From positions 192,736 through 256,735 of the forward strand of contig JBEKEZ010000002.1 in NCBI GenBank assembly GCA_050013575.1: a DNA stretch of 64,000 bases. Direction: 5' to 3'. Under the pieces are notes generated by a model. That model was not told the DNA's origin. It did not search any database and saw nothing but the letters and a program-made list of their open reading frames with translations. Positions within the stretch are counted from its first letter, which is position 1. Every line of letters begins with the position of its first letter. This document shows positions 5,442 to 58,707 of the stretch, in pieces. A program made the position numbers and the translations under genes. This stretch comes from Terriglobia bacterium (lineage in GTDB: Bacteria; Acidobacteriota; Terriglobia; UBA7540).

Positions 5442-5735
5442 TCACATATTCGCCGCGCCAGTACTCAGCGCGTAGGCGTTGGTGCCGTTAAAGATGAAGC
5501 TCTGCGCACTGCATTTCGAGGCCGTCGAGCCGATAGTCATTCCCCCTAAAACGTTGGTGGGCCAGACGAAAGTATGACTGCCACCGCTGTCCTGGCAGAT
5601 GACGAAGTTGATCGTCTCGCCCGCTCTGGCGTTCGAGAGGGTCGAGCTGGTCACATTACCGGTGAGCGTGATCGTTTGCGTGTTGCCGAGCGAGGCATCG
5701 AAGGTTGGCGTGCTAGAAAAGCTGACGGTGTTGAG
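5442..5735. repeat. dispersed repeat copy 1 (encodes the shared C-terminal module)
   Basis: Nucleotide-level similarity to 54731-55024, for example aagctctgcgcRctgcatttcgaggcSgtcgagccRatMgtcatt. Both copies are 97 codons with no gaps. Confidence 0.8.
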
Positions 5736-7085
5736 CGTCCCGGCGTAGACCTTAAACACGTTTGGCAATTGCGATGTCCACGTCGCCCCTGCGGAATTAA
5801 TGAACTCTGTGGAGGAGCCGTCGATATGGCCGCGCAGGTAGTGAACGTTCGTGTTGGTGCTGTCGATGTAGAGGCCGGAACTATGTCCCCCGGACTGACC
5901 ATCCGAAAGGTGGGGATGTTCCAAGAACAGACCGTCGGTGTTAATGGCGTAAACTTCGGCGTAAGCTCCGGTTTCCCCCGCGTCGTTAAACTGCTCTCCG
6001 AGCATATGGATGCCAACGACCAGGCCATTGGTCCCATCGAGGTATACATCATACGATCCAGACCCCGCGAGGCCGTTCCCTTGATAACTGTTTCCAATAA
6101 ATGTAATGTCCGAAGTGGCGTATCCGGCGTTAGGTTTGAGATGAACGGCCCCTCCGGCAGTCACCTGGTTGCAGCCAATAAAGGTGTTTCGAGAAATCGT
6201 CATTTGGCCTATGCCGTATTCGCCGACAATGGCTCGACCCGCGATAGAAGCAAACTGCGATTGGTCAACTAGTGAGCCCGTGGTGTTTGCATTACCGTAG
6301 CGGATCCCTCCCGTCGTCCAACCAATCTGGACTTGACGAATTCGACTGAAATCAAGAGCGGCAGGACCTGGCGCGTTGAAATTTACTGCGTAACCAGATG
6401 TGTAGGCACCGCCGCCTGCCGGACCACTAAAAGTCATTTTGTCGATGTCAACAAACATCGCCTGAGTGCCGTTCAAGCGCACATGGTCGCGTGTATTAGT
6501 GTTGCCATTGATACGGAAGCCCGACAAGGTTAGCCGAGGTGATGAGTTGGCATCAGCACTAATTGCATCGGTGGCTGCACCTGTAGGATTAAACGTGAAC
6601 AACGTCGCCGCGCCGGTCAAACCGCCGTATCCAATACTGTATGGAGGTCCAGCACTGCCGCATCCGAAGACAGTCAACTGAGGTGAGCCGGTAATGAGAA
6701 AAAGGCTGCTGGCTCCGGTATACGTAAACGTCACGCCGCAACCGAGAAGAATCGTAACGTCCTTCGAGATGGTCACGGTACTCCAATTCTGTGCACCTAC
6801 AAGTCCCCGTGCATCACACGTCCCACCCGTCGCAGGCAAGCTCGCAATACAAGCGATAATCTTCGCTCCGCCGTCAGAGCCCGGCATGAGATCGGCGCGG
6901 ACAGTCGGGCCTTGAGTGTTCGGGTCAACAAACCAGCTACGGACATCGGGCATACGCAGGCTAGGGGTCTGGGGCTGTTGTGCACGCAAGCGCGCGCTGG
7001 AAATTAGAAAATGGAATACAGAAATTAGGAGGAGCACCACCAGTTGCCAATCTCCAGTTTCCAGTTTCTGACTTGGATTCTTCAT
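5442..7085 (-). CDS. secreted right-handed beta-helix (pectate-lyase/tailspike-like) protein with conserved 97-aa C-terminal module
   Basis: Leader is MKNPSQKLETGDWQLVVLLLISVFHFLISSARLRAQQPQ. The body is Gly/Thr/Asn-rich and repetitive (GAKIIACIASLPATGGTCDARG..., GNSYQGNG...). The C-terminal 97 aa are about 77% identical, ungapped, to the C-terminus of the 54731-57916 protein. The ORF track extends to 7139; ATG 7085 is preferred. Confidence 0.7.
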   Translation of the reverse strand: MKNPSQKLETGDWQLVVLLLISVFHFLISSARLRAQQPQTPSLRMPDVRSWFVDPNTQGPTVRADLMPGSDGGAKIIACIASLPATGGTCDARGLVGAQNWSTVTISKDVTILLGCGVTFTYTGASSLFLITGSPQLTVFGCGSAGPPYSIGYGGLTGAATLFTFNPTGAATDAISADANSSPRLTLSGFRINGNTNTRDHVRLNGTQAMFVDIDKMTFSGPAGGGAYTSGYAVNFNAPGPAALDFSRIRQVQIGWTTGGIRYGNANTTGSLVDQSQFASIAGRAIVGEYGIGQMTISRNTFIGCNQVTAGGAVHLKPNAGYATSDITFIGNSYQGNGLAGSGSYDVYLDGTNGLVVGIHMLGEQFNDAGETGAYAEVYAINTDGLFLEHPHLSDGQSGGHSSGLYIDSTNTNVHYLRGHIDGSSTEFINSAGATWTSQLPNVFKVYAGTLNTVSFSSTPTFDASLGNTQTITLTGNVTSSTLSNARAGETINFVICQDSGGSHTFVWPTNVLGGMTIGSTASKCSAQSFIFNGTNAYALSTGAANM

Positions 7086-7089
7086 TTTG
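6999..7089. repeat. heptad-phased inverted arms inside the leader coding region (H1)
   Basis: Arm A: ggaaatt agaaaat ggaatac agaaatt aggagga (6999-7033). Arm B: cagttgc caatctc cagtttc cagtttc tgacttg gattctt cattttg (7041-7089). The arms are imperfectly complementary, and the start codon lies in the last unit. Confidence 0.6.
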
Positions 7090-35452: not shown

Positions 35453-35545
35453 CGGAAACTCGAAATTCGAAACTGAAAACGGGACGCAGAGCTTGAGTGA
35501 CCGGTTTCCACTTTCCAGTTTCCAGTTTCCAATTTCTGCTTCTCC
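35453..35545. repeat. heptad-phased inverted arms (H2)
   Basis: cggaaac tcgaaat tcgaaac tgaaaac (35453-35480), then gtttcca ctttcca gtttcca gtttcca atttctg cttctcc (35504-35545). The arms are imperfectly complementary. Confidence 0.6.
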
Positions 35546-40915: not shown

Positions 40916-42304
40916 ATGGCGACCTTACAATTTCTCGGCGCGACCGGAACCGTCACTGGCTCGAAATATCTGCTGGAAGCCGGGGGCGAGCGGCTGCTGA
41001 TTGACTGCGGCCTCTTTCAAGGCGAAAAAGAACTTCGTCTGCGCAATTGGAATCCCCTGCCGGTTCCACCTTCGAGCCTCAACTGGTTGGTTCTGACGCA
41101 CGCGCATTTGGATCATGTCGGCTACATTCCTCGGCTAGTGAAGGACGGCTATCGCGGGGAAATTCTCGCCAACCCGGCGACGGTGGAGCTGGCGCGGCTC
41201 ACCCTGCCCGACTCCGGCCATCTACAGGAAGAAGACGCGGCTTACGCCAACAAGAAGGGTTTCAGCAAGCACAAGCCGGCGTTGCCGCTGTATACCCATG
41301 AAGAAGCGGTGAAGTCCCTGGAGTCATTCAGCCCCATCGACGACTCCAAACCTCTGGAAATATCCCCTCGCTTTACCCTCCGGTTCTTTGGCGCTGGCCA
41401 CATCATGGGCGCGCGCAGCATTCACGTGACGATTCGGGAGAACGGCAGCACCCAGAGCGTGCTTTTTTCCGGCGATCTCGGCCGTTTTCACCAACTGATT
41501 GTCAAGGAGCCGGCGGCCGCGCTGGGAGCGGACACCTTGCTTTGCGAGTCGACTTACGGCGACCGCTTGCACCCGACCGACGACTTTCGCGCCCGCCTGG
41601 GGAAAATTGTTCAGACGACGGTCGAGCGCGGCGGCACGGTGGTGATTCCGGCCTTTGCCATCGGGCGAACACAGGAACTGCTTTACGTTTTTCGGGAATT
41701 GATCGAGCAGGGCCTGATGCCCCCGGTCGCGATCCACGTGAACAGCCCCATGGCGATTGACGTCACCGAAATTTATCAGCGTCACCAGGAAGACGACAAT
41801 GTGGAAACCGCCGCTCTGGTCGAGCACGGCGGCAAACCGTTTTCGCCGCCCAATGTCCATTTCGATCGGACGTTGGAGCAATCGAAGGCGCTGAACAAGT
41901 CACACCCGCCCTGCGTCATCATTTCAGCCAGCGGCATGGCGACGGGCGGGCGCGTGCTCCACCATCTCGCGGCTTGTTTGCCCGACCGGCGCAACACTGT
42001 TCTATTCGTCGGATATCAGGGCGCCGGCACGCGCGGACAAATCATTCAGTCTGGAGCCGACTTCGTCAAAATTCATGGGGCGATGATTCCCGTCCGCGCC
42101 CAGATCGAGACGATCGACAACTTAAGCGGCCACGCAGACTATGGCGAGATATTGAAATGGCTGAGCCGAATTTCCCGAGCTCCGCGCCAGGCGTTCATCA
42201 CCCACGGCGAGCCGCGCCCCGCCAATGCCTTGAAAGAAAGAATCACCCAGGAACTCCGTTGGCGAGTGCGCGTGCCTAGTTACCTGGAACGAGTCACGCT
42301 TTAG
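40916..42304 (+). CDS. MBL-fold beta-CASP hydrolase (RNA-metabolising type)
   Basis: 462 aa. Motifs: HAHLDHVGYIP (HxHxDH), a beta-CASP segment and a C-terminal HGE motif (ITHGEP). Confidence 0.85.
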   Translation: MATLQFLGATGTVTGSKYLLEAGGERLLIDCGLFQGEKELRLRNWNPLPVPPSSLNWLVLTHAHLDHVGYIPRLVKDGYRGEILANPATVELARLTLPDSGHLQEEDAAYANKKGFSKHKPALPLYTHEEAVKSLESFSPIDDSKPLEISPRFTLRFFGAGHIMGARSIHVTIRENGSTQSVLFSGDLGRFHQLIVKEPAAALGADTLLCESTYGDRLHPTDDFRARLGKIVQTTVERGGTVVIPAFAIGRTQELLYVFRELIEQGLMPPVAIHVNSPMAIDVTEIYQRHQEDDNVETAALVEHGGKPFSPPNVHFDRTLEQSKALNKSHPPCVIISASGMATGGRVLHHLAACLPDRRNTVLFVGYQGAGTRGQIIQSGADFVKIHGAMIPVRAQIETIDNLSGHADYGEILKWLSRISRAPRQAFITHGEPRPANALKERITQELRWRVRVPSYLERVTL

Positions 42305-42313
42305 CCGCCGAAT

Positions 42314-42477
42314 AGTAGGCAGTAGGCAGTCGGCAGTTGGGGAAATCAGAAATCAGAAATTAGAAATCAGAATCAAAGACTCAGCGATTGAGGTTCTGCG
42401 TTCTGCTCTCTAATTTCTGCTTTCTAACTTCTGATTTCTGCTTTCTGATTTCTAATTTCTGATTTCTCCCTACTGCC
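42314..42477. terminator. long heptad-phased hairpin between convergent genes (H3), probable bidirectional terminator
   Basis: Left arm: agtaggc agtaggc agtcggc agttggg gaaatca gaaatca gaaatta gaaatca gaatcaa (42314-42376). Right arm: 12 phased units ttctgcg...ttctgat ttctaat ttctgat ttctccc tactgcc (42394-42477). About 30 bp of near-perfect complementarity (gggaaatcagaaat..tagaaatcagaa). It overlaps the stop codon of the HD gene. Confidence 0.6.
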
Positions 42478-43030
42478 CCGCCACGAGCCCCAAAGTCTCC
42501 GCGATGGCGCGCATGGCTTCAATGCAGAAGGTGATGTGCTCGTCGAGCGGCACGCCCAGCTCTTCCGCGCCCCTGATAATGTCCTCACGGCTCACCGAGC
42601 GCGCGAAGGCTTTATCCTTCATCCGCTTTCGCACTGATTTGGCTTCGAGGCTGGCGAGGCGGTCGGGCCGGACGAGCGCGCAGGCGGTGATGAAGCCAGC
42701 CAGCTCGTCGCACGCAAAAAGCGTCCTGGCCAGCGGAGTGTCGCGCGGCACGCCGGTGTAGTCCGCATGACCGAGGATGGCGCGCCGCAGATCCTCCGGG
42801 AAGCCCCGCTCTTTCAAAATCTCGCTGCCCTCCAGCGGATGATCAGGAGCGTTGGGATAAACTTCGTAATCGAAATCGTGAATCAGACCGACTACACCCC
42901 ACGTGCCTTCATCTTCGCCAAGTTTCTTGGCGTAGGCTCGCACGCAGGCCTCGACGGCGAGCGCGTGCTTTCGCAGATTCTCGTTCTTCGTATACTCGCA
43001 GAGCAACTGCCAGGCCGCTTCGCGGTCCAT
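42470..43030 (-). CDS. HD/HDIG-domain phosphohydrolase
   Basis: Start set at MDREAAWQLL (43030). Motifs: KHALAVEA, GLIHDFDY and GHADYTG metal-binding signatures. Confidence 0.8.
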   Translation of the reverse strand: MDREAAWQLLCEYTKNENLRKHALAVEACVRAYAKKLGEDEGTWGVVGLIHDFDYEVYPNAPDHPLEGSEILKERGFPEDLRRAILGHADYTGVPRDTPLARTLFACDELAGFITACALVRPDRLASLEAKSVRKRMKDKAFARSVSREDIIRGAEELGVPLDEHITFCIEAMRAIAETLGLVAGQ

Positions 43031-43152
43031 CGGTTCACCTCGCCAACTCGAGGGTGCATTATACGGGAGAGCTATGGAGATGGCAAAAAGCACGGCGCGC
43101 AGCAAGGCCTCTTCCGCGCGCGGCGCGCACAGCTTGGCCACCTCTCCTTCCG

Positions 43153-46080: not shown

Positions 46081-46197
46081 AGTGAAGCAGTGGCAAGTGG
46101 CGATACAGCCATCGGGTTTCGGGATTAGGGATTCGGGGTTCGCAAATCCCGATCCCACATTCATCCGCGAACCCCGAACACCGAAACCCGAATCCCC
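46081..46197. repeat. heptad-phased element with hairpin (H4)
   Basis: agtgaag c agtggca agtggcg, then gggtttc gggatta gggattc ggggttc gcaaatc (46114-46148), facing gcgaacc ccgaaca ccgaaac ccgaatc (46167-46194). The terminal 12 bp, ttcggggttcgc with gcgaaccccgaa, are perfectly complementary. Confidence 0.6.
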
Positions 46198-46314
46198 AGT
46201 CTTTCAGTGGCTTCTCACCGCCCTCGGGAGGGTGTACACTGACAATTACTCGGGGAGTGTCCCACCCAAACTCCCACCTGAGATTTTTCCGCCCGCGACT
46301 TGTGGAGACTCACG

Positions 46315-47466
46315 ATGAGCCTTATGCGCTTCGTGCGCAGGAACGCGTTTCGCAACAAGCGCCGCAGCTTCCTGACGGTGGTCAGCATCGGGTTTGGCCT
46401 TTTGCTGCTCACGGTGATGATGACCATCTGGCGCGCCTTTTACATTGACAAGGGCAGCGTCGAGTCGTCGCATCGGCTGCTTGTTCGGCACAAAGTATCG
46501 TTCGCGTTTTTCCTGCCGAGCTTTTATCGCGAGAAGATCCGAGCCCTCCCTGGCGTCAAGCACGTGGTGAATCAAACCTGGTTTGGCGGGCAGTACAAAG
46601 ACGACCGGGCGGAAAACTTCTTCGCCCAATTCGGCACCGATCCCCAAGAAATCATGGACGTGCATCGAGACGTCCAGATGCCGGAGGACCAACTGAAAGC
46701 CTGGCAACACGACCGCGCGGGCTGCATTGTGGACGGCGAATTGGCCAAGCGGCTCGGATTGAAGCTGGGCGACCGCGTCTATATTAAGGGGACCATCTTT
46801 CCCATGAACCTCGACCTTACCGTTCGAGGCATCTTCACCGCGCCCATCCCGACCGAAACTCTCTACTTCGACAATGCCTATCTCGACGAAGGCTATCCCC
46901 GCGTGAAGGGCATGGTCGGGTTCTTCAGCGTGCTGGCGGATTCGCCGGAGGCGGTGCCGCGCCTGACGGAAGAGATCGACTCGACCTTCCGCAATTCGAC
47001 GCGTCCCACCAAGACCGGAAGCGAGAAGGAATTCCAGTTGGAATGGATCGCCATGATGGGCAACGTGAAGGCTTTCTTGCTGAGCATCTGCGGGGCGGTG
47101 GTCTTCGCCACGCTGCTGGTATCCGCCAACACCATGGCCATGTCGATCCGCGAACGGACGCGCGAGGTGGCGGTGCTGAAGGCCCTGGGCTTCACGCGCG
47201 GCACGGTGCTTGGGCTTTTCGTGAGCGAAGCCATGACCTTGTCCCTTGCTGGCGGGGTTGTGGGCGCTTTGGCGGCGTGGGGAGTGATGACCGTCATCGT
47301 GCATTCGCCGAAGGGCACATTGTTCGTGAACGGGATGAGGATAACGCTCCCCACCGTGCTGGCTGCCTTGACCGTGGCTGCCGCCGTCGGGTTGTTCAGC
47401 TCGATTGTGCCGGCTTACAACGCTTCGCGAAAGAATATCGTTGATGGATTAAGGTACGTTGGTTGA
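46315..47466 (+). CDS. ABC transporter permease, FtsX/MacB type
   Basis: MSLMRFVRRNAFRNKRRSFLTVVSIGFG start, a large periplasmic loop, and a C-terminal FtsX 3-TM bundle (REVAVLKALGFTRG). Confidence 0.85.
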   Translation: MSLMRFVRRNAFRNKRRSFLTVVSIGFGLLLLTVMMTIWRAFYIDKGSVESSHRLLVRHKVSFAFFLPSFYREKIRALPGVKHVVNQTWFGGQYKDDRAENFFAQFGTDPQEIMDVHRDVQMPEDQLKAWQHDRAGCIVDGELAKRLGLKLGDRVYIKGTIFPMNLDLTVRGIFTAPIPTETLYFDNAYLDEGYPRVKGMVGFFSVLADSPEAVPRLTEEIDSTFRNSTRPTKTGSEKEFQLEWIAMMGNVKAFLLSICGAVVFATLLVSANTMAMSIRERTREVAVLKALGFTRGTVLGLFVSEAMTLSLAGGVVGALAAWGVMTVIVHSPKGTLFVNGMRITLPTVLAALTVAAAVGLFSSIVPAYNASRKNIVDGLRYVG

Positions 47467-47467
47467 A

Positions 47468-47693
47468 AGAAGCTGGAAGCTAGGAGTTAGAAGCTAGAAG
47501 GCAGAAGGCAGTGCGCAGTAGGCGGTGGGCCGAGGAGAGCGGGCGCGGCGCCGGAAGTGTAAGAGTGGCAAATGGGTCATGGTAAATGGGAAATGTGAAA
47601 TGGCCTGTTCGCCATTTACCATTTCCCATGGCCCATTTGCCATTTGAAATGTTTTGCTGGCCCCTCGACATTCGCTTTCTGCCTACTGCCCAC
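47468..47693. repeat. nested heptad-phased palindromic element (H5)
   Basis: Outer array of 9 phased units: agaagct ggaagct aggagtt agaagct agaaggc agaaggc agtgcgc agtaggc ggtgggc (47468-47530), pairing with ctttctgcctactgcccac (47675-47693). Inner hairpin: ggcaaat gggtcat ggtaaat gggaaat gtgaaat (47567-47601) with gccattt accattt cccatgg cccattt gccattt (47611-47645). Confidence 0.65.
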
Positions 47694-47730: not shown

Positions 47731-48894
47731 ATGGCTGTTCCTATTCGATACAATCTCCGTAACCTGGGCGTGCGCAAGGCCACCACGGTGATGACGGCCT
47801 TGGGCATAGCGCTAACCGTGACCACCGCGGTTTTCATCATGGCGCTGCTGACCGGCCTGCGCGAAGCTTTCGCTAATACGGGCGACCCGCAGAACGTAAT
47901 GGTCCTGCGCAAAGGATCCACGTCCGAGGTGGGCGCGGGGGGCGTCGGTCGTGATGCAGCGCAGGTGCTGAAGACCTTGCCCGGCGTGGCGCGCAGTGTC
48001 CAAGGGGAGCCCCTGGTTTCCGGCGAAGATATTTTGATGATCGTTCTCCCACGCAAGGGCGCCTCGGGCGAGGCGAACGTCACCGTCCGATTTCTCTCGC
48101 CCCTGGGCATCGAGATGCGGCCGGAGGCGAAGCTGGTCGCCGGACGATGGTTCACGCCCGGCCAGCGCGAGGTGACCGCGAGCCGGTCCATCAACAAGCG
48201 CTTTGAGCACGCCAACATAGGCGACACCGTCCAGATCGGCAACAGGGTGTGGAATGTCGTGGGCCTCTTTGATGCCGGCGGCACGGCGCACGCATCCGAG
48301 ATGTGGGGCGACGTCAACCAACTCGGAACCGACTTCGACCGTACCTGGTTTTCGTCGGTCCTGATCCGCTCGACCGACCGGGCATCGGCGGAGGCCGTCA
48401 GAAACCGCGTGCACGACGACCAGCAACTGAAGCTCAACGCGATGCTGGAACCGGATTATTACGCCTCGCAGACCAACTCCGGCGCGCCCATCAAATTTGT
48501 CGGAATCATCGTGGCCATCATCATGGCCATCGGCTCGTGCTTTGCCGCCATGAACACCATGTTCGCGGCGGTCGTCAACCGCGCCAAAGAAATCGCCGTG
48601 CTGCGCGTCATGGGTTTCTCGCGGCCCAGCATCATGGCCTCGTTCGTGTTGGAGTCGCTGCTGCTCTCGCTGCTGGGCGCGCTGTTGGGCATCGCGCTGA
48701 TGCTGCCTTTCAATGGCATGACCACCGGCACTTCCAACCAGGCAACCTACAGCGAAGTCATCTTCAGCCTACGCATGTCGCCGGCAGTCCTCGGCGTCGC
48801 CGTCGCTTTCGCGCTGTCGATGGGCTTCTTGGGGGGGTTCGCTCCCGCCTGGCAGGCCGCCCGACAAAATATCGTCACGTCGCTGAGAGACTGA
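47731..48894 (+). CDS. ABC transporter permease, FtsX/MacB type
   Basis: MAVPIRYNLRNLGVRKATTVMTALGIAL start and a C-terminal FtsX domain (KEIAVLRVMGFSRP). Confidence 0.85.
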   Translation: MAVPIRYNLRNLGVRKATTVMTALGIALTVTTAVFIMALLTGLREAFANTGDPQNVMVLRKGSTSEVGAGGVGRDAAQVLKTLPGVARSVQGEPLVSGEDILMIVLPRKGASGEANVTVRFLSPLGIEMRPEAKLVAGRWFTPGQREVTASRSINKRFEHANIGDTVQIGNRVWNVVGLFDAGGTAHASEMWGDVNQLGTDFDRTWFSSVLIRSTDRASAEAVRNRVHDDQQLKLNAMLEPDYYASQTNSGAPIKFVGIIVAIIMAIGSCFAAMNTMFAAVVNRAKEIAVLRVMGFSRPSIMASFVLESLLLSLLGALLGIALMLPFNGMTTGTSNQATYSEVIFSLRMSPAVLGVAVAFALSMGFLGGFAPAWQAARQNIVTSLRD

Positions 48895-49943: not shown

Positions 49944-51002
49944 ATGGAACCGACTGAAGCCGCCGTCGCTGCGGCCAGCGTGACTGAAGATCGCCCCGTC
50001 GAGGCGGAGGCCATCGACCAGGAGTCACGCGCTCGGAGAACAGATCCCGCGGTATTAAAAAGTCTGCTCGAGCAAATGTTGTTGATCCGGCGTTTTGAGG
50101 AGCGAGCCGCGGAGCTCTACACCATGGGAAAGATTGGAGGGTTTTGTCACCTCTATATCGGTCAGGAGGCGGTGGCAGTTGGCGCGCTTTCGACTCTCCG
50201 TAAGGAAGATTACATCCTCACCTCGTACCGCGAGCACGGGCATGCTTTGGCGCGCGGCGTCGATCCCGGCGAAGTGATGGCCGAACTCTACGGCAAGCAG
50301 AGCGGCGTCTCCGAGGGCAAGGGCGGATCGATGCATTTGTTCGACAAGGCCAGGGGATTTTTGGGCGGGCACGCCATCGTCGGTGGTCAGATCCCGTTGG
50401 CCACGGGCACGGCGTTCGCCGCAAAGTATCTCAAGCAACCGCGCGTCACGCTTTGCTTCTTCGGCGAAGCGGCGGTGAATATCGGCTCGTTTCACGAGTC
50501 GCTGAACCTCGCGGCGCTGTGGAAGCTGCCCGTCGTTTACATTTGCGAGAACAATCGGTTCGGCATGGGAACGCCGATTGAGCGCGCCTCGGCCTTGTAC
50601 GAACTTTCGCAGAAGGCTCTCGCTTACAACATGGCCCGCGCTCAGGTGGACGGCATGGACGTGCTGGCCGTGCGCGACGTGGTGATGGAGGCTGTCGAGC
50701 GGGCGAGGAATGAAGCTGCGCCAACACTGATCGAGGCGCGGACCTACCGCTTCATGGGCCACTCGATGTCCGATCCCGTTCACGGCCACTATCGCACCAA
50801 AGCGGAAGTGGAGGAGCAGAAGCGCCACGACCCGATCAGGCGCCTCGCTTCCACGCTCGAATCGATGGGGCTGATCACGCGCGAAGATATACGCGAGATC
50901 GATGGGAAGGTGAAGGAAATCGTTGAGGACGCGGTCGGGTTCTCCGAGCGCAGCGATGACCCGCACCCCTCACAGCTTTACGCCGACGTCTACACGCCGT
51001 GA
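49944..51002 (+). CDS. pdhA: pyruvate dehydrogenase E1 component, alpha subunit
   Basis: AAGGAGGG SD upstream. Motifs: LLIRRFEERAAELY, GFCHLYIGQEA and the ThDP region YICENNRFGMGT. Confidence 0.9.
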   Translation: MEPTEAAVAAASVTEDRPVEAEAIDQESRARRTDPAVLKSLLEQMLLIRRFEERAAELYTMGKIGGFCHLYIGQEAVAVGALSTLRKEDYILTSYREHGHALARGVDPGEVMAELYGKQSGVSEGKGGSMHLFDKARGFLGGHAIVGGQIPLATGTAFAAKYLKQPRVTLCFFGEAAVNIGSFHESLNLAALWKLPVVYICENNRFGMGTPIERASALYELSQKALAYNMARAQVDGMDVLAVRDVVMEAVERARNEAAPTLIEARTYRFMGHSMSDPVHGHYRTKAEVEEQKRHDPIRRLASTLESMGLITREDIREIDGKVKEIVEDAVGFSERSDDPHPSQLYADVYTP

Positions 51003-51115
51003 CGAAGAAGCGACGAGTGGCAAGTGGCGAGGAAGAGCCGCTCCCCACTGTGCCAGCCCCCTCCGGAGTCGCGAAAGGCGCGAGCCGGAAATTTGAACTC
51101 TGAAATTTGAAAAGC
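51001..51115. repeat. heptad-phased element in the pdhA-pdhB spacer (H6)
   Basis: gacgaag aagcgac gagtggc aagtggc gaggaag (51001-51035) and ggaaatt tgaactc tgaaatt tgaaaag (51088-51115). It shares the 15-mer agtggcaagtggcga with 46089-46103. Confidence 0.55.
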
Positions 51116-51125
51116 CGGAGACTAG

Positions 51126-52106
51126 ATGCCGATCATTACTTACCGCGAAGCACTCAACCAGGCCCTGCGCGAGGAATTGCGCCACGATGACCGCGTCTTC
51201 CTGATGGGCGAGGAAGTCGGCTACTACCAGGGCGCCTACAAGATCAGCAAGGGATTGTTGGACGAATTCGGACCACAGCGGGTTTTGGATACGCCCATCA
51301 CCGAGCTCGGCTTCACCGGGCTGGGCGTGGGCGCGGCCATGGCCGGCCTGCGGCCCATCGTCGAGATGATGACGTTCAACTTCGCTCTGCTCGCGATTGA
51401 CCAGATCGTGAACAGCGCCGCCAAGATGCTCTACATGTCCGGCGGACAGTGCCGCGTGCCGATGGTGATCCGCGGACCGGGCGGCGCCGGGCATCAGCTC
51501 GCGGCGCAACACTCACAAGCGCTGGAGTCCTGGTTTTGTCACGTCCCGGGTCTCAAAGTGGTCACACCGGCCACGCCCGCCGATGCCAAAGGACTCCTGA
51601 AGAGCTCGGTTCGCGATGACAACACCGTGATCTTCATCGAGTCGGAAGTGCTTTACGGAACCAAGGGCGAAGTGCCGGAGGGCGAGAATCTGATTCCGCT
51701 CGGCGTGGCGGAAATCAAAAGACCGGGCGGGCACGTCACCGTGATCGCGCACTCCAAGATGGTGCTGGTCGCGCTGGACGCTGCGCAGGAACTAGCGAAA
51801 GAAGGAATCGAAGCCGAAGTCGTCGACCCGCGCACGCTGCGTCCGCTCGATACCAACACGATCCTGGACTCAGTCAAGAAGACCAACCACGCCGTGATCG
51901 TCGAGGAAGGCTGGCCGTATTGCGGTGTGGGCGCGCAGATCTCGGATACGATCCAGCTTCACGCGTTCGATTATCTGGATGCTCCCATCTTGCGCGTGAC
52001 CGGCGCGGACGTGCCCATGCCTTACGCGAAGAATCTGGAACACGCGTGCCTGCCCGACAAAACCCGGGTGGTCGAGGCGGTGCACCAAGTTTTGAATCGA
52101 AAGTAG
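51126..52106 (+). CDS. pdhB: pyruvate dehydrogenase E1 component, beta subunit
   Basis: 326 aa. Motifs: MPIITYREALNQALREEL, GEEVGYYQGAYK and the transketolase-like Pyr and C-terminal domains. Confidence 0.92.
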   Translation: MPIITYREALNQALREELRHDDRVFLMGEEVGYYQGAYKISKGLLDEFGPQRVLDTPITELGFTGLGVGAAMAGLRPIVEMMTFNFALLAIDQIVNSAAKMLYMSGGQCRVPMVIRGPGGAGHQLAAQHSQALESWFCHVPGLKVVTPATPADAKGLLKSSVRDDNTVIFIESEVLYGTKGEVPEGENLIPLGVAEIKRPGGHVTVIAHSKMVLVALDAAQELAKEGIEAEVVDPRTLRPLDTNTILDSVKKTNHAVIVEEGWPYCGVGAQISDTIQLHAFDYLDAPILRVTGADVPMPYAKNLEHACLPDKTRVVEAVHQVLNRK

Positions 52107-52267
52107 GAATTAGGAACTAGGAACTAGGGATGGGGAATTTGGGGGCAGCGCAATTAAGAAATTCAAAAGTAAAAATTCAAAAGAAAGAACGCTCTGCTTC
52201 AATTTTGACTTTTTAATTTTGAATTGACAGACGAAAATCCTTCGTCCTTTCCTAATTCCGGATCCCT
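52104..52267. repeat. nested heptad-phased element in the pdhB-pdhC spacer (H7)
   Basis: taggaat taggaac taggaac tagggat ggggaat ttggggg (52104-52145). The first unit contains the pdhB stop codon. AT-rich inner hairpin: aagaaattcaaaagtaaaaattcaaaag with cttcaattttgactttttaattttgaattg. The outer arm is closed by cctttcctaattccggatccc (52247-52267). Confidence 0.65.
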
Positions 52268-54730: not shown

Positions 54731-55024
54731 TCACATGTTAGTGACGCCTGGAGAGGTTGCTTCCGCGTTGCTGCCGTCGAACACAAAGCTCTGCGCGCTG
54801 CATTTCGAGGCGGTCGAGCCAATCGTCATTGCGCCCTTCACGTTTGAGGGCCAGACGAAGGTCCTGCTGCCGGTCGAGTCCTGGCAGATGATGAAGTTCA
54901 ATTGCTCGCCCGCAGAAGCGTTGGCGAGCGTCGAACTGGTGACGTTGCCGGTGAGCGTAATCTTTTGGGTGTTGCCGAGGGACGCGTCGAAGGTAGGCGT
55001 CCCTGAGAACGTCACGACGTTCAG
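54731..55024. repeat. dispersed repeat copy 2 (encodes the shared C-terminal module)
   Basis: See 5442-5735. My hand count is 75 of 97 identical residues, with no gaps. Confidence 0.8.
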
Positions 55025-57916
55025 TGATGTGGCAAAGTTTCGCGCCGTAACCGCGCCCGTGCCGCTAGGCGTGAGTGTGACGTTCTGGTTCGTTCCGCCC
55101 GCGGTGAGCGAGATGGCGCCGGTCGACGTCACGCCCCCATTGATCACGGGCGAGGTCAGCGTCTTGTTAGTCAACGTGTCGACAGAAGCCCTGTAGACGA
55201 AGGTGTCGGTCACGTCTTGCAGGGTCTGGGTGCGCGCGCCTGTTGCCGTGCCGGTGACTTTGATGTTGTTGGTAGCCGCACTGCCCAGCCACAGGTTGCC
55301 GAACGGGAGCGAGGCCGACCCAAGGTCCCCGACGCCGGCGGAGGAGGGTGTGATCGTCTGCGGTACGCTGAGCGCGCTCGCTCCGAAGATATAAGATTTG
55401 GTGCCGTTCGAGGCTGTCAAGACAAACTGTGAAGACGAAGGATTGAGGTAGAGAGAGTCCGACCCCGCAGCGTCAGAGTTTATCATGTCGTAGACGGGCT
55501 GATTGGCGGAACAGTTCGTGCCCGTGTTGACGGGGGTCCCGTTATTCACTTGCGCAGCCGGGCAGCCAATCCGGATGGCTGCGCCACCGTAAACGCTGGG
55601 GGCAGTCGGGAGCCACATTCCGTAGAAGAATAGCCCTTGAGCAGTGATCACGGCAGGCGGCGAGAAGGGAGCCCCATTGACATAGTCCGCATACTCTGAC
55701 GGGTCGTTCAAATTTTGGACGCCAATCGCATTTTCGCTCCTCTGCCATCCGTGCCCGGACAGTTGAATCAGCATCGTGCTGCTCGGCGCGTTCCCCACGT
55801 AGGGCAATAATTTGTGCACGCCGGAGAACACGTTCGCGCTGGAATCGAATTGCCAGTAGTGTTGATTTTCGACCATCTCGCCGCTTGCCCAGTTGACGTT
55901 GTTCGGGGCCAGCGTTGCCGTGTCCGAAAGCTTCCCGTTTTGCTGCCACGAAAGAACCTCGGCCCCCGGAAAAACGTAGTACTGGTTGGACTGCTGCCAG
56001 CCCGTGCAGGTGGGTGGCGAGCAGCTTCCGCTGATCCCATGGCCGGAGTAACCGATTCCGTTGTTGCCAACCGCCCATGGAATCAGGTGGGAGCTGTCAG
56101 TGACGGCAAGTATCGGGAACGCCTGACGAACACAGTTCACCGCGGGCGAGACTCCGCACGTCGAACTATATCCAGCCTCGCCGTAACGGTCCGAGACCAA
56201 CTCGACATAGTAACCCGCGCAGGCTCCAGCGTTGCCCGATGCGCACGCGCCACCGTTGGCAATGCTCACTACCGCTCCCGGAGGGTGCGGCTTATTGAAA
56301 GTCGCAGTGAAGGCGGTTTGAGGGTTTCCGGAGAAGGCAGTGGCTTTCACAATTTCGTAACTTCCGTCATCGCCGATGACGATGGGCGTGTTAGTGGTGA
56401 CACCGCTCAAGTTCGTCCCCATGGTGTAACTGGCCGGCGTCACTGTGCAGGTGGCAGGCAGGGTGGTAGTAGGGTTGCAGTTCGGACCCGGGATCGCAGC
56501 GTCGGTCAGGGCCAGCACGGTGTTCGCAGTCCACGACGTGCCGTTGCCAACATACTGCGGCCAGGTCCATGCGCCGAGGTTATACGTCCCAAGGGAAGAG
56601 AGCGTGCCATTGCTGCCTTTGGAAATATCGAGCAACGGGCGCCCGGCGCCCTGCTCGGTCTCGGACTGGAGATTGCTCACGGTGATCTGCGTGGCCCCTT
56701 GAGATAATGCAGGGCAGGAGGGCGGACCACAGATCGTGCCGGAGTATACGTCACTCACCTGATAAGCGGTGAAGCCGGCCGACTCCAACCCCTCGTCACC
56801 CATCGTGCTCGCGCCTCCGTAGTTCATGCTCAACACTTCGAGGCCGATGGTGTCGCCCGTCGCCCCGCTGAGCGTCTGGATGCTCAGAGGAATGTGTTCA
56901 GCAGGCGTGTAGTACTGTCCGGCGATGTTAACGGCCTTGAAGACGCTTTTGTCGGCGTAATAGGGCCAGTTGTAGAGATTCCTTCCGCCATCAAAGACCT
57001 TCTGGGAAAACTCGTTTTCCACTACATTCATGAACTGAGTATAGCCGCTGCTTCGGTAGCGATTCCCCACCCACTGATTGCCGACGATGAGATTCGGAAG
57101 GCCGCCGCTGTCAGTCGCGTTGCCCGGCGAATCGTAGTTGGTGACGTGAAGCCCGTCGCGGAAGTCCCAAACCTGGAGATTGGGACTATTCGAGCACCCA
57201 TTGGAGTTACCTGTCATCGAGGTGATGCCGCTGTAGATACTGCCCGCGCCGCAGATTGCCTCCGTGGAGCTGGACTTGCTCGCGGGATTCACGATGAGCG
57301 CGCCGTTCGTTCCGGCATTTGAGATGGCGCTGGCACAAGGCGTGGAACCGGAAAATTGGTCGCAGAATCGCGTGGCCTCGACGTGACCCGTGGAGTCGGT
57401 GCCCAGCGGCTGCGGCACAGACCAAGTTCGCACGTCGGTGATCGAGTTGATGGACGAGCTCCCCGTGCTGACTTCCGCCAGAGGGACTTGACCGGCGACG
57501 AAGCCGCTGGTGTTAGAGGCCGGCACACAGTTATTGGCTGGGTCCAGATACACGTAATTCGTCGCGCTCGCGGTCATGGGCAGGGTGCCGCCGGGATAGC
57601 TGACTGGGGCCTGCGGATTGCCGCAAAAAGCCGTTCCCGCGGCAATGTTCACGTTGGGCCAAGTCCCCGCCGTCACCCAATAGCCAGGACCCACGCCCTG
57701 GACGTACTTCGCATTGACGGCGTAAACGGGCTGGCCGCCTTCCGCCTGCGGCTGCTGCCCCAAAACTAGTGACGAGTGACGAGTGAAGAGTGACGAGCAA
57801 GTTAGAACGACCACGATCAGAGCAACTCGCAGCGCATCGTGCCCGTTCCGACCCCTGACTCCTGACTCCTGACTCCTAACTTCTAGCTTTTGACTTTTAG
57901 ATGCTGCTTTCAACAT
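54731..57916 (-). CDS. large tail-fibre-like secreted protein (1061 aa) with conserved leader and C-terminal module
   Basis: GAGGTG SD 5 nt before the ATG. Leader: MLKAASKSQKLEVRSQESGVRGRNGHDALRVALIVVVLTCSSLFTRHSSLVLGQQPQ. Fibre-type motifs: DLGSASLPFGNLWLG and DTLTNKTLTSPVING. The Gly/Thr/Ser/Asn/Cys-rich body and the C-terminal 97 aa are shared with the 5442-7085 protein. Confidence 0.75.
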   Translation of the reverse strand: MLKAASKSQKLEVRSQESGVRGRNGHDALRVALIVVVLTCSSLFTRHSSLVLGQQPQAEGGQPVYAVNAKYVQGVGPGYWVTAGTWPNVNIAAGTAFCGNPQAPVSYPGGTLPMTASATNYVYLDPANNCVPASNTSGFVAGQVPLAEVSTGSSSINSITDVRTWSVPQPLGTDSTGHVEATRFCDQFSGSTPCASAISNAGTNGALIVNPASKSSSTEAICGAGSIYSGITSMTGNSNGCSNSPNLQVWDFRDGLHVTNYDSPGNATDSGGLPNLIVGNQWVGNRYRSSGYTQFMNVVENEFSQKVFDGGRNLYNWPYYADKSVFKAVNIAGQYYTPAEHIPLSIQTLSGATGDTIGLEVLSMNYGGASTMGDEGLESAGFTAYQVSDVYSGTICGPPSCPALSQGATQITVSNLQSETEQGAGRPLLDISKGSNGTLSSLGTYNLGAWTWPQYVGNGTSWTANTVLALTDAAIPGPNCNPTTTLPATCTVTPASYTMGTNLSGVTTNTPIVIGDDGSYEIVKATAFSGNPQTAFTATFNKPHPPGAVVSIANGGACASGNAGACAGYYVELVSDRYGEAGYSSTCGVSPAVNCVRQAFPILAVTDSSHLIPWAVGNNGIGYSGHGISGSCSPPTCTGWQQSNQYYVFPGAEVLSWQQNGKLSDTATLAPNNVNWASGEMVENQHYWQFDSSANVFSGVHKLLPYVGNAPSSTMLIQLSGHGWQRSENAIGVQNLNDPSEYADYVNGAPFSPPAVITAQGLFFYGMWLPTAPSVYGGAAIRIGCPAAQVNNGTPVNTGTNCSANQPVYDMINSDAAGSDSLYLNPSSSQFVLTASNGTKSYIFGASALSVPQTITPSSAGVGDLGSASLPFGNLWLGSAATNNIKVTGTATGARTQTLQDVTDTFVYRASVDTLTNKTLTSPVINGGVTSTGAISLTAGGTNQNVTLTPSGTGAVTARNFATSLNVVTFSGTPTFDASLGNTQKITLTGNVTSSTLANASAGEQLNFIICQDSTGSRTFVWPSNVKGAMTIGSTASKCSAQSFVFDGSNAEATSPGVTNM
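57778..57902. repeat. two heptad-phased arrays inside the leader coding region (H8)
   Basis: agtgacg agtgacg agtgaag agtgacg agcaagt (57778-57812) and cctgact cctgact cctgact cctaact tctagct tttgact tttagat (57854-57902). About 5 of 7 positions per unit are complementary between the arrays. Confidence 0.6.
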
Positions 57917-57999: not shown

Positions 58000-58662
58000 T
58001 TACCAAATCTGAATGCTCGCCGTGACCCCCGCATCCGAGGCGGTGAGATACAGGTTGGTAGCGTCGAACAGAGTTGTTGGTTGAAACCACAGCGCTCCGC
58101 CGGAGGTCATGTAAATGATTGCGCCCAGCGGTGCCCGCCCAAGATTGTGGTTAGTTGAAAAATTGCCCGCTGCCGCGGCACTCACGGCCAGCCGACCGTA
58201 AACCTTGGTGGCGTTTGTCACCGCGAGGACGTGGGTCGCGTCGGTGGTCACGCTGCCGAGATATGCGTCGCCCGGCGTTGCCGGCGACCCCGTCAGATTG
58301 AAATAGAACCCGGTGATCGAACTCCACCACAGGAAACTCGTGGAGCTGGCCGGCGCCGCTGAGGGGGTCGGGGACGAAGGAGCCCAGCGCATTCCTTGCG
58401 CGTAGAGCACTCCCGGTGAAAGACCCGGCGTCAAATTCGCCGAAGTTGCAAGCGTGAAGCCGGCGATCACACCAGATAGGCCAATGTCGCCAAGCCACGC
58501 GGCGACAGTCCCAGCGGCCAGGACCGCATTCCGGACGTCGTTGGCGTCCTGCAAAAGCGAGTCAATGGTCTGCCAGTTGGTGTCCAGGTCAGTTTCGTAG
58601 TTGTTTCCGTGCTGCGGCTCGATAATTCCTTTTCGCGGCAAAACTGTTCTTACGATCGCCAT
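58000..58662 (-). CDS. short tail-fibre-like protein (220 aa)
   Basis: Start set at MAIVRTVLPRKGIIEPQHGNNYETDLDTNWQTIDSLL. This has the LP-x-P...W...N...ID pattern common at the N-termini of phage fibre and minor tail proteins. The C-half is Ala/Gly/Thr/Ser-rich and beta-like. The ORF track extends to 58815. Confidence 0.6.
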   Translation of the reverse strand: MAIVRTVLPRKGIIEPQHGNNYETDLDTNWQTIDSLLQDANDVRNAVLAAGTVAAWLGDIGLSGVIAGFTLATSANLTPGLSPGVLYAQGMRWAPSSPTPSAAPASSTSFLWWSSITGFYFNLTGSPATPGDAYLGSVTTDATHVLAVTNATKVYGRLAVSAAAAGNFSTNHNLGRAPLGAIIYMTSGGALWFQPTTLFDATNLYLTASDAGVTASIQIW

Positions 58663-58672
58663 GTTCGAAATC

Positions 58673-58707
58673 CAGGAATCGGGGATAGGGGATTCGAGAT
58701 TAGCCAA
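58673..58707. repeat. heptad-phased array (H9)
   Basis: caggaat cggggat aggggat tcgagat tagccaa, immediately upstream of the 220-aa gene start. Confidence 0.5.

Follow-up and report, generated by a model that had tools for sequence, protein, structure and literature searches.

A nested heptamer-armed foldback element in a Terriglobia genome and its proposed tie to PF05635 (S23p) cassettes

A hairpin between two convergent genes

Positions 42314-42477 of a 64,000-nt window from a Terriglobia bacterium (Acidobacteriota; GenBank assembly GCA_050013575.1) hold a hairpin whose arms are tandem arrays of heptamers. The window, that is, the whole stretch of DNA analyzed, corresponds to G000:C2:192736-256735, with G000 denoting the genome (6.13 Mb, 58.9% G+C, 74 contigs); coordinates without a prefix refer to the window. 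The hairpin begins 10 nt past the TAG stop codon (42302-42304, + strand) of gene 40916-42304, which encodes a Beta-CASP/metallo-beta-lactamase protein of the RNA-hydrolase type according to the open reading frame (ORF) list and Pfam (Beta-Casp, 3.1e-36; RMMBL, 5.8e-18). A convergent gene for an HD-domain protein (42470-43141, minus strand; Pfam HD, 1.1e-7) lies on the other side.

Two nested pairs of arms were resolved by Tandem Repeats Finder (TRF). The outer left arm, (AGTAGGC)x3.4 at 42314-42337, is followed by the inner left arm, (GAAATCA)x4.4 at 42342-42372, with its unit variants in the order TCA-TCA-TTA-TCA. A non-repeat core or loop of 28 nt (42373-42400, …AATCAAAGACTCAGCGATTGAGGTTCTGCG) separates it from the inner right arm, (TTCTGMT)x9.6 at 42401-42467, which is longer than its partner by expansion. 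The outer right arm is a remnant, CCCTACTGCC (42468-42477), that pairs with the outer left arm in the minimum free energy fold. The HD-domain gene ends within it, so that its final two codons and its stop (CTA, minus strand, 42470-42472) are part of the arm. The last five residues of the HD-domain protein are unaligned with those of its orthologs. Folding of either strand gave a long imperfect hairpin of -69.7 kcal/mol (+ strand) or -73.6 kcal/mol (- strand), with z-scores against shuffles of -5.5 and -5.8, respectively (n = 200, none as stable). The same spacer measures 165 nt here and 50-79 nt in same-genus or same-family relatives, where it is free of arrays; it is also array-free in G020, at 216 nt.

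The inner part of the element recurs elsewhere in G000. The inner left arm aligns with four paralogs and with the left arm of a gene-bearing cassette at G000:C51:18088-18667, which encodes a protein of family PF05635, the S23p or intervening-sequence (IVS) protein. The arms of this cassette are AGAAATC/TTCTGAT, and after GGG its left arm shows the same variant order, TCA-TCA-TTA-TCA, as the focal locus. The match continues past the arm for about 10 nt of inner sequence (ACTCAG), and the right inner edge is similar as well (TTGGAGG/TTGAGG), so that both edges of the focal core resemble the inner edges of the cassette. A 31-nt core, AGAATCAAAGACTCAGCGATTGAGGTTCTGC, is common to four paralogs with unrelated flanks, and a fifth copy has diverged; the core is kept at C19:51900, C2:330817 and C49:22179 and has its diverged form at C38:61640. 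Because an identical core junction stands at four to five unrelated loci, gene-less copies have multiplied after losing the gene, or without ever having had it. The outer arm belongs to the AGTAGGC/AGGCAGA class, which forms the arms of PF05635 cassettes in a relative, G008 (L210, L211).

The 30-nt arm AAATCAGAAATCAGAAATTAGAAATCAGAA (window 42343-42372) was also found at 94-97% identity in seven other genomes (G001, G002, G003, G006, G010, G019 and G020), some of them of other genera, in which the flanking genes are only ~70-75% identical. Either strong constraint on the arm or horizontal spread would account for this recurrence.

A genome-wide family of inverted heptamer arrays

The initial annotation had described the focal array as one of a family dispersed over the genome, and the whole-genome TRF run bears this out. 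It returned 2,288 period-7 rows, corresponding to 2,243 non-redundant arrays at 1,373 loci; 153 rows had period 6 and 468 had period 9, and those at periods 14 and 21 are harmonics of period 7. The intergenic DNA contained 1,737 rows of period 7; five shuffles of it that preserved dinucleotides gave 14-29 each (about 23), which puts the enrichment at about 75-fold. The description of the period as strictly 7 nt did not hold. A separate 8-nt class (319 intergenic rows vs 20-40 after shuffling) also forms inverted arms, and one cassette of a relative has 9-nt repeats. The number of unit types is about 300 (297 in canonical form).

Gene positions were taken from a home-made codon-usage caller (4,746 genes, 81% coding), on which all positional statistics depend. 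By these rough calls, the non-coding 19% of the genome contains 81.5% of the array bases, ~18% fall within called coding DNA, and arrays account for 4.9% of intergenic bases. An array is present in a quarter to a third of the spacers, with a median distance of 11 nt to the upstream stop codon and 56 nt to the start codon, in agreement with the earlier observation that most copies start within ~20 nt of a stop. The elements lie between the stop codon and the ribosome-binding site of the next gene. Divergent spacers with arrays number 153, and arrays take up 2.9% of the bases of divergent spacers vs 5.9% of those of tandem spacers. Copy number, intergenic bias, stop proximity, the size of about four units and the occurrence of inverted pairs are all as in the heptanucleotide arrays of the short tandemly repeated repetitive (STRR) or Xanthomonas-Nostoc type.

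Arrays commonly occur as complementary arms. Of 848 pairs of adjacent arrays, 383 (45%) match as reverse complements in at least 6 of the 7 positions, compared with ~3% of random pairings, and an inverted partner within 200 nt was found for 1,122 of the 2,243 arrays vs 37 in the reversed-unit control. Loops have a median length of 30 nt, and elements a median span of 93 nt. The 5' arm is purine-rich (G 29%, C 12%) and the 3' arm is its complement in 288/381 pairs (binomial p = 3e-24), a polarity that is equal on both strands. No preferred register was observed for mirror-image unit order between the two arms of a hairpin (87% vs 80% identity), and inner and outer arrays of nested elements are equally homogeneous, giving no age order (n = 12, p = 0.73).

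Arm length is sharply distributed. Arms of 7-mers peak at 30-32 nt (4.4 units, equal to five cores and four linkers), with 185-218 arms per length at the peak and 42 at 35 nt, and the same peak was observed in relatives and metagenome contigs; arms of 8-mers peak at 36-37 and 28-30 nt. Within arrays, 83% of the mismatches fall in the two most variable unit positions vs 69% expected, and on account of this concentration the unit looks like a conserved core of 4-5 nt followed by a variable linker of 2-3 positions. A weak common pattern, A-N-T-S-R-N-A, reached 4.5 bits vs 3.5 bits in a rotation-matched null. Formation of G-quadruplexes was considered and rejected: the majority of units are not G-rich, and therefore it cannot explain the four-unit mode here.

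Unit classes cluster locally. Pairs of arrays with the same unit 300-5000 nt apart number 225 genome-wide vs 101 expected, which suggests short-range spread or gene conversion between neighboring spacers. An autonomous long-range element with arrays at its ends was rejected, since inverted pairs at this distance (105) are not above direct pairs (120); the short-range subset of ~400-650 nt consists of the PF05635 cassettes. One-arm expansions were also seen, with ~45 units of TTCTGCY at G000:C38:61640-61985 and 18 perfect GGCAGAA units at a contig end (G000:C51:1-217). Such very long one-arm arrays probably break assemblies.

Comparison of orthologous spacers documents gain. The E1-beta/E2 spacer of a 2-oxoacid dehydrogenase operon is 172 nt here and 33 nt in G001, G002, G003 and metagenome contig L035; in L034, a closer metagenome relative, the outer TAGGAAT element is present and the inner one is missing. 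About 3.4 kb upstream in the same co-directional run, the spacer between 46300-47466 and 47731-48894 measures 12 nt in G001, reaches 121 nt with other arms in G003 and is 264 nt long in G000. Whole elements are thus added to spacers in which nothing beyond a ribosome-binding site is required.

Similarity between loci extends beyond the unit. Arms at different loci share 28-nt runs (at most 1 mismatch) 1.5-7 times more often than in a unit-order-permuted null in 9 of 10 classes, and specific combinations of outer and inner arms were found at 3-4 loci each. A single master sequence per class was not recovered by expectation-maximization alignment, which gained only 0-1.4 bits over the same null; the pairwise test is the more sensitive one. 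The right arms of the focal-element paralogs range from ~4 to ~45 units, and this spread in copy number indicates that slippage resizes arms after their formation. The initial annotation had offered a slippage-driven birth process as one explanation. In its pure form this fails on the sharp length mode, on the unit-variant order common to several loci and on the several paralogs with the same loop, slippage acting only afterwards to resize arms.

PF05635 cassettes, 23S rRNA inserts and the origin of the hairpins

The initial annotation had proposed a search for a RAYT-like or other repeat-associated gene. A partner gene was found, although it is not a RAYT but PF05635. G000 has 21 PF05635 genes, and 16 of them are bracketed by inverted same-unit arrays no more than 300 nt from the gene, in cassettes spanning 450-640 nt; the same holds for 7 of 597 small control genes. 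Three of the remaining five have related arrays on either side. Two cassettes are octamer-armed, which accounts for the 8-nt class. In a relative, a PF05635 gene (G037:C26:201900-203400, L222) is flanked by 9-nt arrays, GTTCAGTCT x12.9 and GACCGAATA x6.6, so the period spans 7 to 9 across cassettes. The units of the cassette arms rank 2, 3, 4, 5, 7, 9, 10 and 12 among the 297 unit types, and 722 arrays match a cassette-arm unit exactly, compared with a mean of 166 (maximum 444) in random draws of unit types. The unit is always equal in both arms of a cassette, though it differs between cassettes; the proteins of the AATGGCA/TGCCATT and AAAGTCA/TTTTGAC cassettes, for example, are 66% identical. 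The two arms of a cassette thus change in concert or compensate each other.

The association extends to other genomes. Of 20 PF05635 genes sampled in relatives, 15 have such bracketing arrays, and these include genes of G008 (4/6), G013 and G025, three repeat-poor genomes with period-7 density at background. Homologs of the C51 protein were found in 18 places in named genomes, 15 of them bracketed, covering at least nine phyla (Acidobacteriota, Bacteroidota, Calditrichota, Verrucomicrobiota, Planctomycetota, Saccharibacteria, Cyanobacteria, Nitrospirota and other candidate phyla). The AGAAATC/TTCTGAT arm class is kept in all six Acidobacteriota homologs (67-73% protein identity), and more distant homologs have other units. 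Across 18 genomes, the PF05635 count correlates with period-7 density (Spearman 0.79; 0.62 for the RAYT count). These densities were sampled from 20-100 kb of each relative, and the genomes are kin and hence non-independent, so that correlation p-values overstate the case.

The C51 protein is a member of PF05635/TIGR02436 and matches PDB 2rld, an entry with five chains (E = 2.8e-20). The PF05635 product is a small four-helix-bundle protein, Avd-like, and is no known transposase. Its C-terminal tail in C51 (…EKQKEKQKLESRNQKK…) is encoded by AGCAGAA-type heptamers in direct orientation at the 3' end of the ORF (G000:C51:18520-18640); arm-like repeats thus reach into the coding sequence. Avd of diversity-generating retroelements is homologous to PF05635 (PMC10053308), and PF05635-family genes have been found wedged into cas loci (PMC3936711). 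A link to diversity-generating retroelements was rejected for G000, as none of its four reverse-transcriptase matches lies beside a PF05635 gene.

PF05635 proteins are known from IVSs of 23S rRNA, and the 23S rRNA gene of G000 itself (L226:1501-5467 = G000:C11:97704-101670) is 3,967 nt long against a model of 2,925 positions. A gene-less, octamer-armed hairpin of 105 nt is inserted at position 1218/1219 of the Rfam large-subunit model, at a hairpin tip. We take this site to be helix 45, from the GGUAG-GGAGCGUU motif that follows and from E. coli numbering. The insert has arms of (CATTGATT)x4.8 and its complement, folds at -57.9 kcal/mol (z -5.8) and shares its unit class with the cassette at C1:363206-363655. 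Smaller heptamer-bearing inserts stand at model positions ~282 and ~583. Another insert, of ~790 nt after position ~1649, contains a 170-aa ORF for a LAGLIDADG_1 homing endonuclease (L226:3857-4369, +; PF00961, 7.6e-19) and is probably a group I intron. The rRNA operon spacers (before the 23S gene, between 23S and 5S, and after 5S) are dense in 7- and 8-mer arrays of several classes (L226:1380-1473, 5498-5526, 5621-5648, 5720-5750 and 5940-5971).

Published IVSs provide the closest precedent. In Coxiella, the IVS sits in helix 45 and has a 28-bp stem with tandem GACAGAT heptamers ahead of the S23p ORF, in a copy number that varies between strains, and RNase III cleaves it at the first repeat (PMC4990558). 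The focal locus likewise has an inverted-repeat stem of ~25-30 bp with tandem heptamers, as its folds and TRF arrays show (cf. PMC4990558). It differs in that no ORF, and hence no S23p gene, is present in its 28-nt core, and in that it is adjoined by two protein-coding genes and does not lie in helix 25 or 45 of a 23S gene.

Taken together, these results make it probable that the focal locus is a nested copy, without a gene, of a small foldback element whose family is dispersed over the genome, is tied to PF05635 cassettes and has arms of about five 7-nt, less often 8-nt, cores. The gene-less hairpins would then be derivatives of the cassettes and not the reverse, because the arms travel with the gene even where the genome is nearly without gene-less hairpins. 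When co-transcribed with neighboring genes, the arms would base-pair to give a double-stranded RNA stem that is 25-35 bp long and imperfect. By analogy with the substrate cut when IVSs leave rRNA, such a stem would be open to RNase III, which G000 encodes, and the likely effect would be RNase III processing or a 3'-end stem rather than termination; cutting of this kind could also be why even 23S rRNA tolerates such inserts. The five-core arm may reflect contact with a pentameric S23p ring, one unit per subunit. A protein-spacing constraint had been suggested for the conserved period, and that idea gains support: arms are quantized at about five cores in both 7-mers (30-32 nt) and 8-mers (36-37 nt), and the Xanthomonas S23p is a homopentameric toroid, as reported in PMC4990558 from Lin 2006. 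A bolder version, which we put forward tentatively and rate as rather doubtful, is that the S23p pentamer reads five tandem 7- or 8-nt units per arm; that arms and gene make up a self-propagating cassette of a new kind, having no nuclease or transposase of its own and perhaps moving via RNase III-excised RNA or hairpin DNA; and that its gene-less offspring are the source of the bacterial heptamer excess.

Several observations weigh against this interpretation. Loops are unique in 300 of 323 hairpins, only 23 having a paralog, and most hairpins are therefore not demonstrably copies of each other or of a cassette. No cassette in G000 has arms of the commonest unit class, AAGTGGC (109 arrays), and within this genome protein similarity predicts arm similarity for the closest pairs only (rho -0.17). 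G008 (L206-L211; 100-kb sample L134-L138) has 11 PF05635 genes, its four of six sampled ones armed as given above, and ~1 period-7 array per 100 kb, which is background; since armed cassettes occur there without gene-less proliferation, cassettes alone are insufficient for it. The elements encode no nuclease, recombinase or polymerase. No fixed-length target-site duplication was seen at the insertions; three paralogs are flanked by 5-8-nt direct repeats of differing length, possibly by chance. Sense-strand counts of G:U and A:C (206 vs 219) do not indicate that an RNA stem in sense transcripts is under selection. The dependence of the positional statistics on a single gene caller belongs here too, and so does the direction of descent: that hairpins came from cassettes by gene loss, and not cassettes from insertion of a gene into an existing hairpin, is argued, not proven.

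Ordinary slippage would make the arrays STRR-like repeats born from a polymerase with a 7-nt preference, their inverted partners arising by template switching and the PF05635 genes being merely co-located. The heptamer excess of bacteria has been ascribed to polymerase slippage (Mrazek 2007, as cited in PMC4692102 and PMC4679880), and the long perfect one-arm expansions at C38 and C51:1-217, the differing copy numbers of paralogs, the predominance of unique loops and the resemblance of the TAGGAAT unit at 52104 to the ancestral gene end GGAAATAG in L035 all fit such an origin. We nevertheless regard it as unlikely, for lengths do not decay but form a sharp mode in both unit classes, unit-variant order is common to loci and genera, identical loops stand at unrelated sites, PF05635 genes are bracketed far more often than controls (16/21 vs 1.2%), also in repeat-poor genomes, and entire elements, 140-250 nt in size, occur or are lacking in spacers that measure 12-33 nt in relatives. 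Still less probable is that the hairpins are selected RNA elements at gene ends, either bidirectional terminators lacking a U-tract or 3'-stabilizing hairpins like the REP (repetitive extragenic palindromic) sequences in E. coli operons. The proximity to upstream stops, the strength of some hairpins, the halved share in divergent spacers and the strand-symmetric polarity, with a G-rich purine 5' arm and a C-rich pyrimidine 3' arm, would suit such a role, and a terminator scan of the region returned 16 sites vs 20.9 expected, none of them an array locus, so that another signal could serve. No T-run of the kind found in intrinsic terminators follows the focal stem, however, and the sense strand lacks a G:U excess. 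Elements have entered 33- and 12-nt spacers inside the 2-oxoacid dehydrogenase operon and other co-directional runs, as well as divergent spacers, called coding DNA and, with one copy, 23S rRNA, which makes the terminator function that had been proposed for testing unlikely; and since close relatives lack them in the orthologous spacers, those spacers can do without them.

Mobilization by the RAYTs of the genome, as in REP/REPIN systems, is very improbable. The layout of two ~31-nt inverted arms with a short spacer is REPIN-like, and G000 has 15 RAYT-like places, several above the NCBIfam NF047646 cut-off, with the cross-genome correlation noted above. Yet any array within 400 nt was found at only 2 of these 15 genes (background 37%) and on both sides at one, so the flanking of RAYT genes that defines REP-RAYT systems is lacking; the arms are direct tandem repeats of hundreds of unit types and not imperfect palindromes, and G008 combines 18 RAYT matches with background repeat density. 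The earlier judgment that the arrays are neither ordinary terminators nor ordinary REPs thus stands, on the missing U-tract, the unflanked RAYT genes and the tandem direct arms. Arrays of double-stranded-DNA binding sites for a nucleoid or global regulator are also improbable, if somewhat less so. Ribbon-helix-helix proteins such as omega and MetJ polymerize on contiguous boxes of 7-8 bp, and the quantization at 4-5 units, the conserved core with its concentrated mismatches and the weak A-N-T-S-R-N-A pattern would be expected of such sites, for which the paired 5x7 and 4x8 sites proposed in Geobacter metallireducens offer a precedent (PMC2700814). Against this, ~300 unit types would demand many specificities, sites come and go among close relatives and show no tie to gene function, no candidate regulator was identified, and the link to PF05635 explains the same quantization.

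Related systems and other loci of the window

The hairpins compare most closely with ORF-bearing 23S rRNA IVSs (Coxiella burnetii helix 45; Leptospira, Brucella and Xanthomonas S23p; PMC4990558). These share the long inverted-repeat stem, the tandem heptamers, the PF05635/S23p gene in the full-length loop and, in this genome, a copy in its own helix 45, and heptamer copy number varies between strains in IVSs as well (PMC4990558). The focal locus and ~1,350 others differ in lying outside rRNA, between protein genes, nearly all of them ORF-less; hundreds of copies with ~300 unit types are present, and excision by RNase III is here an inferred property.

The Xanthomonas (GGGAATC) and Nostoc (GGGGAYT) heptamers and the STRRs of Calothrix and Nostoc (PMC4692102) resemble the present arrays in their tandem 7-nt units, ~four-unit mode and ~90% intergenic location. 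In these repeats too, the stop of the upstream gene (28 nt away) is nearer than the following start (160 nt); they include 70-75 inverted pairs per genome, are rarer in divergent spacers and vary between close species (PMC4692102). The Xanthomonas repeats have one dominant G-rich unit, read in that paper as a G-quadruplex former, whereas G000 has ~10 times more arrays and hundreds of mostly non-G-rich units, and PMC4692102 names no associated gene. Heptamer repeats have also been described upstream of Nostoc rec genes (bioRxiv 10.1101/2022.06.06.494920). The paired "global regulator binding sites" of Geobacter metallireducens (5 x MTYCTGA, 4 x GTTGCTYN, 3 x TCTCCGTSY; PMC2700814) are likewise opposite-strand pairs at variable distance, with five heptamers or four octamers per site, in intergenic and operon-internal positions, and MTYCTGA is one base from the focal TTTCTGA unit. 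Unlike the arrays of G000, they amount to only 8-24 pairs per class and were read as sites for integration host factor (IHF) or HU, with no PF05635 link noted (PMC2700814). The TAACTGA repeats of marine Beggiatoaceae, Microcystis and some Bacteroidetes (PMC4679880) are intergenic tandem heptamers of 2-6 copies in hundreds of sets per genome, patchy across phyla in a way that suggests horizontal spread; they differ in being mostly direct (one indirect set reported), upstream of start codons and of one dominant unit.

REP elements, bacterial interspersed mosaic elements and REPINs with their RAYTs share with the hairpins a size of ~100 nt, two inverted arms of ~30 nt, location at gene 3' ends and in operons, mosaic or nested clusters, lineage-specific presence and a conserved single-gene partner in the genome. 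In contrast to these, the arms here are tandem direct repeats, the partner is a four-helix-bundle protein with no known catalysis, and RAYT genes are unflanked. Miniature inverted-repeat transposable elements and foldback transposons are similar as short non-coding hairpins that share arms with rarer gene-bearing copies and show local clustering of the same class; they differ in that the gene-bearing form here has no recognizable transposase, no consistent target-site duplication is seen and interiors are mostly unique. No paper found in the literature links genome-wide heptamer hairpins to an S23p cassette, and nothing was found on acidobacterial heptamer repeats.

Three separate published observations, namely heptamers as the most over-represented long simple repeats in many bacteria, the paired 5x7/4x8 sites of Geobacter, and the widespread, structurally solved PF05635 family of unknown function, appear as one system in extreme form in this genome, with ~5% of intergenic bases in arrays, 16 of 21 PF05635 genes armed and a copy in helix 45. 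If the link is true, the repeats gain a concrete partner, through S23p pentamer binding and RNase III cutting; annotators are warned that such hairpins are neither terminators nor small RNAs; and the operon spacers of many soil bacteria would seem to be shaped by a selfish or semi-domesticated element. The link may also explain the heptanucleotide excess, on record for cyanobacteria from 1990 and for bacteria at large from 2007.

Ten period-7 loci had been listed for the window, with arms that can usually pair. TRF reported arrays at nine of them; the tenth, 58673-58707, is only a degenerate run. Pairing is clear at 42314, 46081 and 47555 (z about -5.4 to -5.8), weak at 209, 35453 and 57778 (z about -2) and not supported at 6999, 51001 and 58673 (z +0.6 to -0.9). 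About six of the ten fold better than shuffles, and the earlier description was right in kind and generous in detail. No Rfam family reached its gathering score anywhere in the window.

The weaker loci are as follows. An array of (TTCTGAC)x4.6 at 229-260 (TRF) has a short GTCAGAA partner at 209-228 (z -2.3). GGAAATT-type units face (CCAGTTT)x4.1 at 6999-7089; exactly this unit class also makes up the arms of two PF05635 cassettes, at C12 and C27, and the fold has a z of +0.6. At 35453-35545, (GAAACTC)x3.6 faces (GTTTCCA)x4.7 (z -2.05). The arrays (AGTGACG)x4.3 and (GACTCCT)x4.6 at 57768-57881 have partly complementary arms (z -2.07); by the rough gene calls, the first lies just past the stop of minus-strand gene 54731-57763 and the second in the spacer toward 58000-58707. 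The run at 58673-58707, the weakest listed, is GGGGATT-like, lies at the 5' end of minus-strand gene 58000-58707 and folds with a z of -0.25, TRF remaining silent.

Two loci flank the E1-beta gene of the 2-oxoacid dehydrogenase operon (Pfam for 51126-52106). Between the E1-alpha-like and E1-beta genes, AGTGGCG units and (GAAATTT)x3.6 at 51001-51115 show no clear pairing (z -0.9). Between E1-beta and the E2-like gene, the nested element at 52104-52267 has outer arms (TAGGAAT)x5.1 … TCCTAATTCC and inner arms AAATTCA / AATTTTG, with the stop codon in its first unit; its z of -1.0 was computed on 150 nt only, with the outer partner not included.

The two remaining loci are strongly folded. At 46081-46197, AGTGGCA units are followed by (TCGGGAT)x4.4 facing (CGAACCC)x4.1, in the class of the C38 cassette (-54.8 kcal/mol, z -5.8). 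The locus at 47468-47693 is a nested composite, with outer AGAAGCT/AGAAGGC/AGTAGGC arrays around an inner (TGGGAAA)x5.4 / (CCATTTC)x4.9 hairpin (inner fold -48.3 kcal/mol, z -5.4), and the same combination of outer and inner arrays was found again at C19:49071, C27:3337 and C8:46245.

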